A DNA stretch of 63,999 nt, filler included, from Ionaspis alba (lineage: Eukaryota): NCBI GenBank assembly GCA_964255285.1. It is 14 parts of 14 records of this genome, joined end to end, with 100 filler letters (N's around TTAATTAATTAA, not from the genome) between each part and the next. Parts side by side here need not be neighbours in the genome. Positions count along the whole stretch, not along the records: positions 23,412 to 27,962 come from CAXUUL010001089.1; 13 more parts are not named here. The stretch is one strand, 5' to 3'. The translations under genes and the position numbers were made by a program. Below, in pieces: positions 1 through 27,738 of the stretch. Each line of letters opens with the position of its first letter. Position 1 is the stretch's first letter. The notes under the pieces are model-generated. The model had not been told where the DNA came from. It worked only from the letters and a program-made list of their open reading frames with translations, and ran no database searches.

Positions 1-765
1 AGTGTTTTCTTCCATTCTGAAAGAGAGATATAGCCATAGTCCGGAGGTGATGGAAGGCATACCAAAATCACTGCCACGTGATAGAAATCTGGAGAATCGA
101 AAATTAGCAATGATTTGAGATTCCTTATCTGTGCCGCACAAGTCAACCTCATAGACAAAACCCACTGCGAGTATCAAACATCCTCGCGAAAATACGAGGA
201 TCAATAACTTCAAACACGGTGCTAGAAGCCATCAAAGACTGCTGGAAGTTGCAGAATATCACGGAAAGACAGCTAGAAAAATCGAGGTACCCGAAGCACA
301 GTGGCGATATCGTTCTCCTTTCTCGTATTCGCTACGTATAAAGGGTATCGAGATTCAGCTCTCGAGCTCGCTGCCCAGTCGATCACTATTGGCAAAGGCA
401 TCCTTGGAGAGAAAGGCCCACGGGCTGCTGACTCAATGTACCTTGTTGCCACGATGTTATTCGATGTAGAGAGGGTCGCGTCGGCCATAAAGCTGCTTAG
501 GGAAGTAATTGAAATGAGTCAAGGGATGGAGATGACAGGACACCTCGCAAGAGCTCTTTAAACTTCAGCTGATTGAAAGGACAACACAGAGGATTAGGAT
601 GAGATTAAAAGACTTCGAGACAAGGCTCGTTCTGCCAGAGACGACATAGACCGAAGAGAGTCCCAGAATGTGGAGGATTTTGCTACAACGCCATGGACTA
701 GAGGCAAAATCAATCTATCATCATGTTCCAAAGTCCGTCGCCCAGATAATGACCGGAGTCCATAA
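1..765 (+). pseudogene. Degenerate 3' portion of a TPR-like (probably NB-ARC/NLR-type) gene
   Basis: Frame +3 reads ...KSRYPKHSGDIVLLSRIRYV* (TAA 339-341). After an apparent 1-nt insertion, frame +1 reads GYRDSALELAAQSITIGKGILGEKGPRAADSMYLVATML...GHLARAL*TSAD*KDNTED*DEIKRLRDKARSARDDI (stops 559, 574, 595). The helical TPR-like pattern resembles C-termini of fungal NB-ARC-TPR proteins, recognised from memory. Confidence 0.55.
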
Positions 766-1360
766 CTACTCCTTTCTTCTTCTCCTTAATGTCCTCCGTT
801 CCCATCCTCAGTTGGCCGACCAGACACGCTTCTTCCTTTCCCTCTGCCTCAATGACTGCGACTTCCCCCTCCTTCAATTGTGAGTCTTCTGCTGGTAGTC
901 TACCGCCCGTGGACGTCAATCCGGGCGCCATGAGCGTAGCTCCGGACAGCACGAATCGAATGGCTCCCCTGTCAATTCCTATCCGTGAGAAACATTTCGG
1001 AAATTCGTGGACCACTTTGAGGTGTGGAATTATGGGATCGTCCATGTGCTGCCAGAAGAGTGGTTTATTGTCGAGCGCATAGAGCGTGACTCGATCAGGC
1101 CTTCGCTGGTCAGCGTGGAGCTGTCCTCAGAAAGTTGTCCATGTATCTCTCACAGCTTGAGGAGGTCCAATTGAGACTTCTTCGGTATGAGCTCGTCAAT
1201 ATGCGGTGCAAGTAGTGGGTAGGTTTCCACAATCTTTGTCCGAATAGCCCGCTGGACAGAGGACTTGACCTTCGACTTTGCACCTGGGGAAATACTGATT
1301 GATCAGCCAGAGGAGCAAACCATTAAGTCTCCCTCTGCGCACTTACTCCTTTTTGAACAT
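710..1360 (-). CDS. TMA20: Translation machinery-associated protein 20 (MCT-1 family, PUA domain)
   Basis: ATG at 1360. Spliced product MFKKDISPGAKSKVKSSVQRAIR...PDRVTLY...IPHLKVVHEFP...DRGAIRFVLSGATLMAPGLTS...HYLGDGLW. Introns at 1295-1346 and about 1100-1153. Confidence 0.95.
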
Positions 1361-2826: not shown

Positions 2827-3054
2827 GATGGCGGAAGTGTGTGGAGTGTGCTGAGGACTGATGGTAGTGTGTCCAAGAGATTGTGCAAATTTGTGTGGAG
2901 TGCTGGTAGACTGACGTCGTTTGTCAATATCGGCTATTGATACCAGTGACCTAGCTTAATAGGGCTGCGCAGTTCTAAACCCAACAAGACAACAGTCTCT
3001 GCCGGACGGCGTGACTTACTCCTCGCCGACAGGGCAAGGCTTTCAAGAATCAGT

Positions 3055-4604
3055 ATGAAGATGGTGCCGCCTTCTCGTGTGATTATCGACACGGATCCTG
3101 TAGGGTTAAGGTCACTTCAGACGCCAGGTCTTCAACTGAATAATCTTCTTAGGGTGTTGACGACATCATTGCTATGCTATTTGCAGTGGCATCTAGTCCT
3201 GAAGATATCGATATTCTTTTGATTTCAGTAACATTCGGGAATGTGGATGTGCACAAGTTAGCGATGTCGGGCCCACGCTTGATAGGCAGACAGCTCTAAT
3301 TTGTGGCTATCCTAAGTTGTTTGCGTAATGTTGTCGCCATGTTCAGCATAATCCAGAAAGAAATAAAATGGCGACGTGACAATGGATTACCGGAAGGCTT
3401 CGATCTCCTCAAAATTTCGAAACCCTTAGTCGCTGTGGGCGCTGACGGGCCTCTCGGAGACGAGCTTATGATAGCAGACTACTTCCGTGCGTTATTGGCA
3501 TGCCATATCTTCTCCTGCTGACAGTTTTATGGCAGACGGGAGAGATGGTCTAGGTGGTATCCATGAGACTGTATGAATTTACAATCAATCTCCTTGATCA
3601 TTACAATACTGACGAACTCAGCACCAACACTTAAGTCCCCCAGACACATGGAAGAATCTCTTCTCCACGCCACCGTCGACTACATTCTTGACCGATACTG
3701 CAGAGAAAGAGGGCCACATAGAGTTGGACTCCTCGACCGCTCTATTCACACCTTCTCAACGCCCATCACACGTAGAGATCTTGCGCATTCTTGAGGAAAA
3801 CCCTCCTGATACTGTTTCCATTATTGCCATTGGCCCCCTTACAAATCTCGCACTCGCCGCATCGCACTCACCGAAGACGCTTATGCGTGCTAAATCCGTG
3901 CTTGTCATGGGAGGCGCAGTGGCTGTACCTGGAAACATGACGCCTCTGGCGGAGTTCAACGTCTTCGGTGATCCAACAGCAGCTGCTCGGGTGTTCGCGC
4001 TCACATCTCCGAATCCAGCCAGCAGCATGCCACCAATTCTACACCCAGTTTCTAAGCAAGAGAAAAGAGATCCTTCGGATCGATCGCCACTTCCACCGTA
4101 CCCGCCCAAGAAGGAGCTTGGAGCTCGAAGGCTGAAACTAGTGTTGTTTCCGTTAGACATTACCATCCAGCACGAGCTGCGACAAGACCAGTTCATGGCG
4201 AGGATTCAACCACTTCTTGCTAAGGGCAGTCCACTGGCAGAATGGGCCAATGCCTTTTTGAGCTCGGTCTTTCTTACGATGCAGTCATTGCAGAATGGCG
4301 TTGGTGACAATGCCTATCTCGAGTTGCATGATCCATTGTGCGTTTGGTATGCTTTGAACCAGAGGGTCGAGCCAGAAAGGTGGGTTGTCAAGGAGGAAGA
4401 AGACATTCGAGTGGAAACTACGGGACAGTGGACAAGAGGAGCATGCGTAGTGGATCGAAGAAACAGGAAGAAACGACAAGGTAGCGATGATGAGGACGAC
4501 GAGGTACCAGGTGATTCTGGTGGTTGGCTGAGTTCCGCACGAGGCAATCGGCTTGGAAGATGTACAGGAACTCCAGGGGGTGACAAATTGGCGCCATTAA
4601 TACT
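3055..4604 (+). CDS. Inosine/uridine-preferring nucleoside hydrolase family protein (3' end truncated by contig end)
   Basis: Spliced motifs IIDTDP|GVDD, TFGNV, HGRDGLGG, IIAIGPLTNLALA, MGGA..GNMTPLAEFN..DP and LHDPL. Four short introns between 3100 and 3620. Confidence 0.9.
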
Positions 4605-23411: not shown

Positions 23412-24060
23412 ACATGGAACACAGTCCCCGTAAATGCAAGTACTTTAAGTATAAATGAATTCGATGCAAGATGCGACAGAAGGAGTTAACATCACGAACC
23501 ACATGATTGCTGGTTCGATGAAGGAATGATCAATATGACACTGGTTGCATCGTTGAGGCAGACAATGTTAGAGAAGCCCTAAACACTGGAACGTTTTGGA
23601 CAATCAAGGAGCGGACTGACAGAGAAAAGATGACTCCGCAAAGCCCAGTGCTAATGACCACTTCTATAGTGCCCCAATTCTTTCCCGTCAAGACGAACAG
23701 GTCACTCGCAAAAGTAATCCCAGGCAGCAGGTTCGTGAAGAAGACATAGACGGCACTGGCAAAGACCAATTGATTGAACACGGTCCAATCGGAGACGTAA
23801 CGTTTACCCAGATTCTGGAGATCCTGCCTAAGTAGTCGGAATGGTCTCAAAGGTCCTCCCGAAGCTACAGATCCACGGAGTAATTGTATGGGCTTCGGCG
23901 TATGCTTAGAGGGCGTGATGGATGAATGATCTGCCTCTTCTAAAATCGTCTCCGATGTTGCTCCTGTAGCAGGATGGGTTCGTCGCCGTATATTGACGGA
24001 CCTTCGCCGAAGCATGCCTGCCCGTGTTGAGGGGGGTTTGAAGGCTGATATGATAGTCAT
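23412..24060 (-). CDS. HCO3-/borate transporter family (BOR1/SLC4-like), 5' part only
   Basis: RYVSDWTVFNQLVFASAVYVFFTNLLPGITFASDL...NWGTIEVVISTGLCGVIFSL is the start of an SLC4/BOR1 membrane domain. The contig ends downstream. Confidence 0.8.
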
Positions 24061-24990
24061 CGTTACGACAGAACCCTTTCCTTCGACTCATGTAGTGTAT
24101 ACCATGATCGAAAGACAGCGCCTGGGTGTCTCCTTCGCACTGGTCACTTTGAGATCCAAAAGAACTTTAAGATTACTACTGTCGTGGAGTGCTTGAGTGT
24201 GGTGCAGCCCCTCGAGCAAATGTAAGCAACCGATGACGTCCACCTTTGGCAGATGTCAAGGAACCTTAAGTTAGCGTACTCACCTTAATTCCATCCAACG
24301 TTGTCTCCGCATAACATAATTGTATACATATAATGTCTTATGCTCCATAACGCCATAAAAATCCTTCCATGTTGCTCCGATTCATCTCCCCGTACTCCCA
24401 AACCCCGAGCAAGAGAAGAGTCAAAGGGCAGCGTTCAGCACCAAAACAACTAGCTCGATCGAGGATTTCAATCGCGCAATATAAGGTCCTTCTTGCCGGT
24501 GTAGCTCCACTGCGCAGGAAGGGAGAAAGGAGAGAAAGAAATGCGAGACTATCCATAGATGGAGTCTAGACTGAGGTTTTCGGCACCCAGCACGAGGCTT
24601 GTCCGCGCCCATAAGGTGGAATTCATTGACTGGTTCCCCTTGGTCTATTGGGCCATATGGTATCAAGGCCGCCACCGATGCTACTCTGGGGCTCTGCAGG
24701 GACTTGACTCGTCAGGGGTACTCAAGGCATTGTTGCCAAAGCGCTCTCCGTATTTGTCGTTATCTTCCTTCAGCGCGTCTCTTTATGAGGTGGCGCATCT
24801 CAGCCTTGCGCCAGGTCGGGCAACGAGACTCAGTCTATACCCATCCAGTGTGAGAATGGCCAAATACAGTGAAGTATGGGATATTCAAGGGGGGAGCCCC
24901 ATGATTGCGCCTTGTGGTTCTGCTGGTTAACCATCTCTTCCTCTCCATCCCTTTCCCTTCGTCTCTGCACACCCCTCATGCCTCCTGCCT

Positions 24991-24999: not shown

Positions 25000-25143
25000 T
25001 CTTACTTCATTCAGCGACTCTCCAAAGGCGACTACACTGGCTTTTATGATATCTGATTGCTGAATACTGCGTCCTCCTTTTGTATTTAGCTGCTGCGCAT
25101 CGTGCACGTTGCGAAAAGCGGATCCACTCTACTATCACCCGCC

Positions 25144-26017
25144 ATGATCCTATCTATTACCTCTGTGCTGCCACTTTGGCTCTTGATCTTGTTGCTAGAT
25201 CAGCAGTCAAAAGTCGGGGCGCAAACCATCTCTATTGCCAAGGACGCTGATCTCCTCAAACAAAGAGATTGTATCATTGGCTGTGTCGGCAATGGTTATA
25301 GTAATCTTGTTGCCGCAGTCGGATGCGAAAGATCAAAACAGGATTCCTGCCTGTGCGCGGAGGACCTCCGTAGCATCGGATCGTCGTTCCTGACAAGCTG
25401 CCTGGCGACCGAGTATACGACCTGCGGTGGCCCAACACCAATCACTGCCGCGCTCTCGATATACAACAGGTACTGTGGCTTCACAGGCCCAGCGACTGTC
25501 TTCGCAACCCCATCTCCGACGCCGAACATTCCTGGAGTCAACGACGTAGCTACAGTGACCGTTTTCTCCGGTCCTGGGCCAACGGTGACAGTGAAATCCT
25601 CGAGCTCTTCCGAAATACAACCGCTGAGCTTCAGTGAGTTGCTCCTCATCGCCGCATCCACATTGCCATTCATAATCGGACTACTCGCGGTACCTCGCGG
25701 CTGACCGACGAGGGTTAGGCCCAATACCTTCACCGACGACAGAGCCTTCACCCACTATCATTATCTCAAGTACTCCAAGCCCACCAGGTTCTACGACGAC
25801 CTCATTCAGCCAATCCTCTAATGCACAAACACCGGCATCCATACCATCTGCTTCTTCTACACAGATATCGACAGACGATAACGGAGGACTTAGTCGATCT
25901 GATAAGATAAACTTGTTAGTGGGGCTTCTGGTTCCGTTATTTTGTTTAGGAGCAACCTTTTTTGGATGGTGGCTTAAGAGACGTTTGAGTAATAATAAGA
26001 CCAATCATATTTCGTAA
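25144..26017 (+). CDS. Secreted 8-cysteine CFEM-like surface protein. Spliced form is single-pass transmembrane; intron-retained form (stop 25704) is GPI-like.
   Basis: Signal peptide MILSITSVLPLWLLILLL, eight Cys (CIIGC, C, CLC, C, C, YC) and an S/T/P-rich stalk. Intron 25634-25718 (GTGAGT...GCTGAC...TTAG) joins in frame to an S/T/P stalk, GLSRSDKINLLVGLLVPLFCLGATFFGWW and a KRR stop-transfer; TAA at 26015. Confidence 0.75.
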
Positions 26018-26648
26018 CCATGATGAAGAACCAGTGAAACGCCTTCCGTTCTTGCAAGACTGCTCCCAAAAACTTATGGCTCTGGAGGTTACTACCAGGA
26101 TCATTGCACAGTTCCTCGAGCGAGGGTTGCGTCTCAACTAGTTTCGCCAGAATCTTGCCGTGGAAGCCGCTCCCAGCAAGGCAGTGCTTAAAGAAAACCC
26201 CTTGAGTGATTAACTAGATATATAAGAACTAATTGATTGCTGTATCGCCAAAGAGGTCAGTTCTTTTGCCTTCAATTCCAAGCCGTGAAATCGAGCACCC
26301 CACCCTGTGGTCTTCAAGGAATTAGGCTCGACTGTTAGCTGTGACCCTGCACGTCAGGGAGGCCACACCTTGAATCCTCGATCGTAACGTTTGAAGAGTT
26401 CTTAGGATCTGATCTCAGGAAATGCCCTAGAGTTATCTTCGGGTTCCGGCCACTAATCTACCGCGAAATGGTCCGAGCTTCTTGGCCCGCTTTGAGCCGG
26501 GAGTGCAGGAAATTCTGTCGGCATATGTACAAAACTCAGGATCATATTACAGCTGTGCTTCCAATCACTACTCCCCATGCTTCAATCTTTGCTCTCTTGG
26601 AGCGCAATCGTTGAGCCATGTGGCTAGAAGTGTTTACCACAGCCGCTG

Positions 26649-27738
26649 ATGGCAACTTTCATACCTCGAACGGTCTTCCCAACCCTCGACTCTTTACCTC
26701 GTTCGTACTTCTTGGGACATCATCGAGCTGGACTCAACAAGATGAAGACTATGCTCTCGTCAATCGATCTTATTATTGAATGCAGAGACTATCGGGTGCC
26801 GTTGACCTCACGGAACCCTCTCTTTGAGGATAATCTAGCGGGTAGAGCAAGATTGATCGTCTATACTAAGCAAGATCTAGGAAGTGAGGGACGGCAACGG
26901 GATAGAAGGGTAATTCTCCTCATGAATGGTATGATGCTACATCTCCGTACATGGGCTCATTTTTTCATAGCGAGAAGACATTATCAAACAATGGCACACG
27001 CCTGCTGAAGTCCTCTTTTCTGACCACAAAGATCCTCGCTCCGTCAGGAAGGTTCTGAACTTTGCTCGCAATCATGCCGAATCGAATGATACTTTGACAG
27101 CCTCGAGAATGATGATTGTTGGTATGCCCAATGTAGGAAAGTCTTCTTTATTAAACGCTTTGCGTCAAGTTGGAATGCACAAACGAAAGGCCGCCTCTAC
27201 AGGAGCACAACCAGGAGTCACAAGAAAGATAGGGACAACGGTGAGAATTGTCGAAGCTACCGAGGATCGTGAGGGAGTCTACCTCGTTGATACACCAGGG
27301 GTTTTTGTCCCATATGTACCAAACTCGGAATCAATGCTTAAGCTTGCGCTCTGCGGTAGTGTCAAGGACACAATTATTGCTCCAACTACTCTTGCGGATT
27401 ATCTTCTCTTTCAGCTCAACCTGCAAAGACCGAGTCTCTACGAGGAGTATTCCGAGCCAACCAACGACATCATGGTACTCTTGGATGCGGTAGCTCGCAA
27501 GACCGGCAGATTGCAGAAAGGGGGTAAACCAGACCAAGATGCGTCAGCCCTGTGGATAATACAAAGATGGAGAGGTGGCCACCTCGGACGCTTTGTGCTG
27601 GATGAGATAACGGAACAAAGCTTTGATAGAGACCGAATGGACATCGAGAACCTAAGTGGGAGTGTGAGCCAAGCACGTCGAACCGAGAAAGAAGTAAGGC
27701 GGCAGAGATCGAAGGCCAAACACATAGAAGCTGGATAG
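26649..27738 (+). CDS. MTG1: Mitochondrial ribosome-assembly GTPase 1 (YlqF/RbgA family)
   Basis: SYFLGHH, IIECRDYRVPLTSRNP, YTKQDL, VGMPNVGKSSLLN, GAQPGVTR and DTPG. Intron 26910-26970. Confidence 0.93.

Follow-up and report, generated by a model that had tools for sequence, protein, structure and literature searches.

In this study, we analysed a gene at positions 25144-26017 of a 63,999-nucleotide (nt) stretch of joined DNA records from the fungus Ionaspis alba (assembly GCA_964255285.1). This whole stretch is referred to here as the window, and the part of it that holds the gene comes from CAXUUL010001089.1. The gene would encode a secreted surface protein with an eight-cysteine (8-Cys), CFEM-like head, and comparison with its relatives makes it reasonably probable that its intron codes in two ways. 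The start codon ATG lies at 25144 on the + strand, and the frame is open through to a TGA stop within the intron. When the gene is read without splicing, the product is a protein of 186 amino acids (P0001) with the C-terminus SSSSSEIQPLSFSELLLIAASTLPFIIGLLAVPRG. When it is read with splicing, the product has 262 amino acids and consists of a Cys-rich head, a Ser/Thr/Pro stalk, a transmembrane (TM) helix and a basic tail. An earlier reading of this locus (hereafter the original prediction) had proposed a splice switch between a form anchored by glycosylphosphatidylinositol (GPI) and a TM form of the same protein. The 85-nt intron that it described, with GTGAGT, a branch point and TTAG, was found in place, and so were the stalk, TM helix and basic tail that follow it in frame (Table 1). 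The N-terminus encoded by exon 1 is hydrophobic (MILSITSVLPLWLLILLL). It is a probable signal peptide, judging from this hydrophobicity and from a helix at residues 8-21 of an AlphaFold model.

Table 1. Features of the surface-protein gene in the window, followed by the intron and read-through tail of each distinct homologous locus (window rows in window positions, other loci in positions of the locus; the last column gives the best 13-residue Kyte-Doolittle mean of the tail)
Feature	Position	Strand	Length	Content	Best mean
Exon 1	25144..25633	+	163 codons + 1 nt	Hydrophobic N-terminus, 8-Cys domain, Ser/Thr-rich linker leading to SSSSSEIQPLSF	
8-Cys helical domain, CFEM-like	25270..25476	+		C43, C47, C61, C69, C71, C86, C94, C111	
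Intron, phase 1	25634..25718	+	85 nt	GTGAGT 25634-25639; CTGAC 25701-25705 (predicted branch point); TTAG ends 25718	
Read-through frame of retained intron	25633..25704	+		SE, LLLIAASTLPFIIGLLAV (25639-25692), PRG, TGA 25702-25704	
Exon 2	25719..26017	+		Ser/Thr/Pro stalk; GGLSRSDKI 25883-25909; TM 25913-25975; basic tail 25976-26014; TAA 26015-26017	
Window locus, intron	25634-25718		85 nt	Tail SELLLIAASTLPFIIGLLAVPRG	2.46
L001, intron	2970-3055		86 nt	Tail SELLYPAASTNLICLALMTVPRR	1.72
L002, intron	2922-3007		86 nt	Tail SEFPYPAVSTNLIRLTLMAVPCR	1.37
L003, intron	614-699		86 nt	Tail GEFAFTLLVVLAISTVAFAAFQY	2.71
L004, intron	878-959		82 nt	Tail SELLIIVAFANTLCIAGITVPRR	2.60

The codon that the intron splits encodes Ser in either case, as A/GC when the intron is spliced and as AGT when it is retained. 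In the retained form, the C-terminus SELLLIAASTLPFIIGLLAVPRG comprises an 18-residue hydrophobic stretch followed by PRG, and the TGA that ends it falls within the predicted branch point CTGAC. The retained frame is hydrophobic and its stop is the core of the predicted branch point, both as the original prediction had it. In the spliced form, exon 2 adds 98 further codons after the A/GC joint (P0002), with LLVGLLVPLFCLGATFFGWWL as the TM segment and KRRLSNNKTNHIS, directly before the stop, as the 13-residue basic tail. The exon-2 frame contains no Met between its flanking stops. Exon 2 therefore cannot be a gene of its own and would be expressible only through splicing. The GC content is 57.6% in the intron, 52.9% in exon 1 and 43.8% in exon 2. 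The usual contrast between exons and introns is the opposite of that in this gene, where the intron has the highest GC content. At third codon positions the intron frame is C-rich, as in exon 1, and exon 2 is A/T-rich. A second in-frame acceptor AG was also seen at 25711-25712, and its use would give a 79-nt intron. The two acceptors lie 6 nt apart (GAG/GGTTAG/ at 25711-25718), and in-frame acceptors with the same spacing (GAG/GGGCAG/) are present in two homologous loci, at 3048-3055 of L001 and 3000-3007 of L002. With such tandem acceptors, exon 2 could begin with two residues more or fewer.

We compared the intron frame with what chance would give. Among the three frames of the window intron, that of exon 1 alone is hydrophobic; the others have means below 0 or are closed. 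The intron interior was randomised by 20,000 single-base shuffles, and a first-order Markov chain was used for a parallel simulation. An open tail 17-30 codons long whose mean reached 1.6 or more was obtained in 0.31% of the shuffles and in 0.36% of the Markov simulations. Across the introns of all loci described below, shuffles reached such a tail in 0.06-1.8% of cases. The hydrophobic intron frame in the window gene is more than chance. The earlier argument that two coherent anchors are unlikely to come from random intron sequence is thus borne out, at about 0.3% of shuffles for the window intron. An empirical null built from other introns in the window was dropped as unreliable. A strict pattern scan gave 2 candidates and a relaxed one 28, and the relaxed scan returned many plainly false matches, for example inside TM-coding sequence including exon 2 itself.

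Homologous DNA was collected in a single scan of metagenome contigs that was built on a 9-sequence alignment, and five loci (L001-L005) were obtained. L004 and L005 are the same over the gene, which leaves four distinct sequences in addition to the window. As shown in Table 1, the introns of these loci are 82-86 nt long. In every locus, an in-frame xGTGAGTT opens a hydrophobic tail that stops 23 codons on, and the end of the TGA lies exactly 70 nt from the first base of the intron. This TGA sits within CTGAC in all loci except L004, which has TTGAC. The readings of each intron in the other two frames have means below 0 or are closed. Exon 2 resumes in every locus in the frame dictated by the length of that locus's own intron, and it encodes a Ser/Thr stalk, a motif of the G(G)LSRSDKVN or ITEADKIN type and a TM helix. 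The helix is followed by a basic tail in L001-L003, and the L004 and L005 contigs stop within the helix. Close to the 3′ end of the tail, the pattern GTN CCN CGC NGC TGA C is common to the window, L001 and L004, and L002 differs in one more base, with TGC in place of CGC. Within this shared stretch, the differences fall at third codon positions, for example GTA/GTC and CCT/CCA. When the four divergent introns were summed, the differences at codon positions 1, 2 and 3 were 102, 89 and 111, a distribution that is not clearly codon-like and comes from introns too diverged to decide. The original prediction had named orthologous introns as a check, and an open hydrophobic frame ending at the branch-point stop was present in 5 of 5 DNA loci (the four distinct sequences and the window). 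In our judgement, the same distance from 5′ site to stop at a protein identity of about 40-50% would be unexpected for a freely evolving intron.

L004 (380-1162) and L005 come from two different metagenome records. Both carry the same copy of a family member, and this copy resembles a pseudogene. Stops interrupt its frame at positions that are Gln in relatives, ahead of KVSL and ahead of RDC, and a 1-nt frameshift follows YCSFTG. The intron frame and exon 2 remain open in this copy.

Protein relatives of the window gene were then searched for. A word-indexed search with the retained form found one relative, EPUS_06526 of Endocarpon pusillum (P0003), with 192 amino acids and 52% identity, whose annotation gives the unspliced form. 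The protein ends in GELGLIAVATGLLLLAKLAVPGR, a stretch that aligns to the window intron frame at equal length and with no gap, and 12 of 23 residues are identical when counted by eye. A word-indexed search with the profile of a 42-sequence alignment (A1) gave eight relatives. The family came to light in an unindexed search of representatives, which gave 282 relatives at E ≤ 0.001, with 50 of them at E ≤ 1e-10. The family survey covers 150 listed of these 282, and 151 relatives were examined in all. A hydrophobicity rule was applied to the resulting 152 sequences, the window form included. By this rule, 56 end in a C-terminal hydrophobic stretch, 34 have an internal TM helix and a tail, and 62 belong to a remaining class that includes many fragments.

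The tails of the short forms frequently open with G, S or R, then E, then L, W, F, Y or S. This corresponds to xGT GAG Txx, which is the splice site GTGAGT read in frame. Several further tails open with GK, SK or GM and fit GTAAGT or GTATGT. A strict signature, [GSRC]E[FLSYCW] at 15-35 residues from the end and without a TM helix just upstream, was found in 43 of the 151 relatives. The tails of 33 of these 43 are hydrophobic, as expected from the proposal that a hydrophobic intron frame would be conserved in the family. Their commonest length is 23 residues (11 of 33), as in the window. Ten members were looked up, and many of the short forms proved to have been called as open reading frames (ORFs) in JGI/IMG metagenomes or in Logan assemblies. 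Because of this origin, their tails are literal read-through of the intron. Annotated short forms are known from Coniochaeta (KAH8903553.1) and Endocarpon. Annotated TM forms are known from Lophiotrema nucula (KAF2117111.1, 256 amino acids), Dendryphion nanum (KAH7139049.1, 257 amino acids) and Rhexocercosporidium (KAH7356431.1, 213 amino acids). We take the named members to span several classes of Pezizomycotina. One member, P0034, is a 355-residue ORF call from Logan in which SEV-LLTVMSIMIVGAVFLCC continues openly into LSDKVNIAVGTVVP and on to RRKR. Its "intron" is open, and both hydrophobic segments stand in one frame. Taken across loci and proteins, the intron is probably a dual-coding one that is conserved.

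Several findings weigh against an intron frame that is translated and kept by selection, and some of them favour constitutive splicing. In such a case, the 262-residue TM protein alone would matter, and the short database proteins would be artefacts of unspliced ORF calls. The intron frame would be left over from an ancestral GPI or TM end, or it would make a rare unspliced message harmless. All three splice signals (5′ site, branch point and acceptor) come close to consensus, which would allow almost complete splicing, and ORF callers supplied many of the short forms. The tails of 10 of the 43 signature-bearing relatives are non-hydrophobic. The family members are related, so the 33 hydrophobic tails are not 33 independent events, although each of them stands for a separate cluster at 50% identity. 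P0034 runs from the hydrophobic segment into an exon-2-like end without a stop, and the L004/L005 copy, being a pseudogene copy, counts for less. Between the close pair L001 and L002, divergence is 9.3% in the intron, 5.0% in exon 1, 8.4% in exon 2 and 9.6% in the 3′ flank. The six differences within the intron interior of this pair fall 4, 2 and 0 at codon positions 1, 2 and 3. The tail of L002 is only weakly hydrophobic, and by eye the tail of P0006, a third member of this lineage, corresponds to the L002 intron read in a different frame, which would require an insertion or deletion there. The read-through frame thus looks unconstrained or decaying in the lineage of L001, L002 and P0006. On the other side, a leftover would be expected to have lost frame, length and hydrophobicity alike at about 30-50% protein identity, yet most signature-bearing tails are hydrophobic and 23 residues remains the commonest length. 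The constant distance from 5′ site to stop in all five DNA loci and the rarity of such tails among the shuffles argue in the same direction. We regard constitutive splicing as rather improbable. For the dual-coding intron, we infer that selection may keep the frame because the retained message is translated.

The spliced form was examined in the same way. Window exon 2 matches exon 2 of L001 at E = 6e-16. It matches the C-terminus of the annotated Lophiotrema nucula TM form (P0031), a protein with the same 8-Cys head, at E = 2e-12. L003 matches only weakly (E = 0.009). The GGLSxSDK motif, the TM helix and the basic tail are kept in L001-L003, and L004 keeps them as far as its contig end. Pfam Mid2 (PF04478) matches 4 of the 42 relatives in A1, with a best E of 2e-4, and window exon 2 itself matched no Pfam family at E ≤ 10. 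These matches bear on the possibility that the gene has a single exon and ends at 25704, as annotated in Endocarpon pusillum, with 25719-26017 non-coding. For this speak the nearest annotated relative, which is the 192-residue unspliced form, the low GC content and A/T-rich third positions of exon 2, and the fact that the exon-2 region is open in other frames too. In addition, a word-indexed protein search with the exon-2 peptide found no relatives. Yet exon 2 is conserved in L001, L002, L003 and, to the contig end, L004 in the frame that the intron sets, an annotated family member has a matching C-terminus, and 34 of the 152 classified sequences have an internal TM helix with a tail. We consider a single-exon gene very improbable. 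The TM form, which had been proposed as a real alternative, is upheld by L001-L004 and by the annotated Lophiotrema protein. These results suggest that the coding sequence of each alternative end is conserved in relatives.

We also investigated which kind of anchor the retained form would carry. Hydrophobicity in 17-residue windows is high at residues 1-4 and 161-169, and the retained form ends three residues beyond the hydrophobic stretch. By eye, the C-terminus has the layout of a GPI signal, with SSSSS, the 9-residue polar spacer EIQPLSFSE, 18 hydrophobic residues and the end of the protein. In the alignment consensus, the Ser run about 9-12 residues upstream of the hydrophobic stretch is conserved. 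The fungal GPI pattern of De Groot and colleagues (2003) reportedly has its last ten residues uncharged. The window tail ends in Arg-Gly (...VPRG) and fails this pattern by its Arg within the last ten residues, which counts against a GPI anchor. The GPI signal of the original prediction is thus favoured by its layout and disfavoured by this Arg.

The tail ends bear equally on another possibility, namely that both forms are made and that the retained one is a TM protein with a three-residue cytosolic end. This differs from the favoured reading only in the anchor. An 18-residue run followed by basic residues is present in the window, L001, L002, L004, Endocarpon pusillum and P0004. The window tail ends in PRG and those of close relatives in PRR, PGR or PCR. 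Moreover, 10 of the 33 hydrophobic tails have a basic residue within the last four. Against a short TM anchor, the conserved Ser run fits an attachment site and a spacer, and 17 of the 33 hydrophobic-tail relatives match the fungal GPI pattern. Some animal GPI signals accept polar or basic ends. We judge a short TM anchor in place of GPI, as a complete account of the gene, to be somewhat unlikely. As to the anchor of the 186-residue form itself, GPI and TM stand at about even odds on these features.

The head of the protein was compared with known CFEM domains. In alignments A1 (42 sequences) and A3 (149 sequences), the eight Cys are invariant or at least 90% conserved. The AlphaFold model shows a helical domain at residues 31-110, where the mean predicted local distance difference test score (pLDDT) of 10-residue blocks is 86-96; the mean for the whole protein is 79.2. 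When the family profile was searched against PDB, the top match was the CFEM protein Csa2 (4y7s), at E = 0.15 and with the Cys aligned. Several family members are named "CFEM domain-containing" in UniRef. Pfam CFEM (PF05730) was found in 6 of the 42 relatives at E ≤ 0.1, with a best E of 0.0023 and all below the curated threshold. The window protein gave no match to this family even at E ≤ 10, and P0003 and P0031 gave none at E ≤ 0.01. A Foldseek search of the model against PDB returned no match at E ≤ 0.001. In a wide VIA-align comparison the best Z was 5.1, the matches were weak and helical, and there was no CFEM entry among the best 50. The spacing between C6 and C7 is 7 in the window domain; in the CFEM consensus it is 3-4. 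The description of the protein as CFEM-like, made in the original prediction, is thus backed by the eight conserved Cys and the Csa2 profile match and lacks a Pfam match and a fold match. "CFEM-like" is a fair label that holds loosely, for what would be a distant relationship.

Taken together, the favoured reading can be set out as a mechanism. Removal of the intron would give a 262-residue type I membrane protein in which the head and a long stalk are followed by a Mid2-like juxtamembrane motif, the TM helix and a tail of 13 residues. If the intron is retained, the ribosome would add 23 codons and halt at the TGA inside the branch point, which would yield a 186-residue form with a short stalk. 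This form would be held at the membrane by its 18-residue segment, through either GPI exchange or a TM anchor almost without a tail. The intron ends and the branch point would steer splicing to the TM exon, and the intron interior would encode the alternative anchoring end. The balance between splicing and retention may then set the ratio of the short-stalk form to the long-stalk form with its tail. The short-stalk form, if GPI-anchored, could possibly be passed on to the cell wall. More tentatively, the 5′ site, the hydrophobic frame of about 23 codons and the branch-point stop may be kept together within the intron in several ascomycete classes, with retention acting as a regulated switch between a GPI or cell-wall form and a TM form. 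We offer this wider proposal as a possibility that falls short of even confidence.

Sequence variation and neighbouring genes were also noted. Among the sequencing runs searched for 25000-26200, no RNA run covering the gene was found. Contigs of the runs X1 and X2, compared at 80% likeness, have several alternative bases at 25037-25257, upstream of the gene and at its start. Both differ from the window at the exon-2 positions 25726, 25768 and 25784, and by our reading two of these differences change an amino acid. They have no differences from the window within the intron, and no joints. These differences are probably strain or haplotype variation. Two further open frames flank the gene. One, at 26971-27738 on the + strand, matches the GTPase family MMR_HSR1 (E = 9.5e-14). 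The other, at 23530-24087 on the - strand, matches the HCO3- transporter membrane domain (E = 4.6e-9). Both are of housekeeping type and have no obvious connection to the surface protein.

The evidence for coding constraint inside this intron is comparative. If the favoured reading is true, many short "GPI-type" and long "TM-type" CFEM-like entries of fungi would be two products of one gene. Both forms would then have to be included in inventories of surface proteins and in predictions of effectors or receptors. The overlap of stop codon and branch point would also place splicing and coding signals on the same bases.

CFEM proteins have a signal peptide, an N-terminal helical domain with eight Cys, a Ser/Thr-rich region, and a GPI signal or a TM segment (PMC8721227). 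The window protein shares its domain order with such CFEM proteins as Csa2, Rbt5 and Pga7 of Candida, CfmA-C of Aspergillus fumigatus, and ACI1 and Pth11 of Magnaporthe. It differs from them in the absence of a Pfam CFEM match, in its wider C6-C7 spacing and in that no match to the Csa2 fold was found. Full-text searches of open-access papers and preprints turned up no account of an anchor switch encoded in an intron, whether for fungi or for CFEM proteins. The closest report is a chance observation in Lasiodiplodia theobromae, where LtCFEM7 and LtCFEM8 are alternatively spliced, with an intact frame in only one transcript, and the section that reports this describes no anchor switch (PMC8721227). 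In the excerpted text of a 2026 review of CFEM proteins, a maize kinase is the one case for which alternative splicing comes up. The spliced form is like proteins of the Mid2/Wsc type in its O-glycosylation-type Ser/Thr stalk, single TM segment and short basic cytosolic tail. It is unlike them in its Cys-rich CFEM-like head, in a cytosolic tail of 13 residues and in an exon 2 without a Pfam match.

Intron retention is the commonest kind of alternative splicing in fungi and is mostly taken as noise or as a means of lowering expression. To our knowledge, conserved protein-coding use of a retained intron has rarely been documented. Switches between GPI and TM forms by splicing are established in animals, with NCAM-120 versus NCAM-140/180, CD58/LFA-3, and the H, T and read-through forms of acetylcholinesterase as examples. 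The gene described here is like these in that one ectodomain would receive alternative C-terminal anchors, with the choice made at the RNA level. In contrast to the animal switches, its second end is carried within a short fungal intron and would be reached by retention and not by exon choice, and the branch-point sequence contains its stop codon. The host is a filamentous ascomycete, and both isoforms are predicted from sequence. A second parallel is found among fungi themselves, where cryptic peroxisomal signals of glycolytic enzymes in Ustilago and Aspergillus are exposed by alternative splicing or stop-codon read-through. As in those cases, a conserved alternative C-terminal sorting signal would lie in usually non-coding sequence and be recognisable by conservation across species. 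Whereas the peroxisomal signal is a tripeptide, that of the window gene would be a 23-residue membrane-anchoring tail that acts in the secretory pathway.

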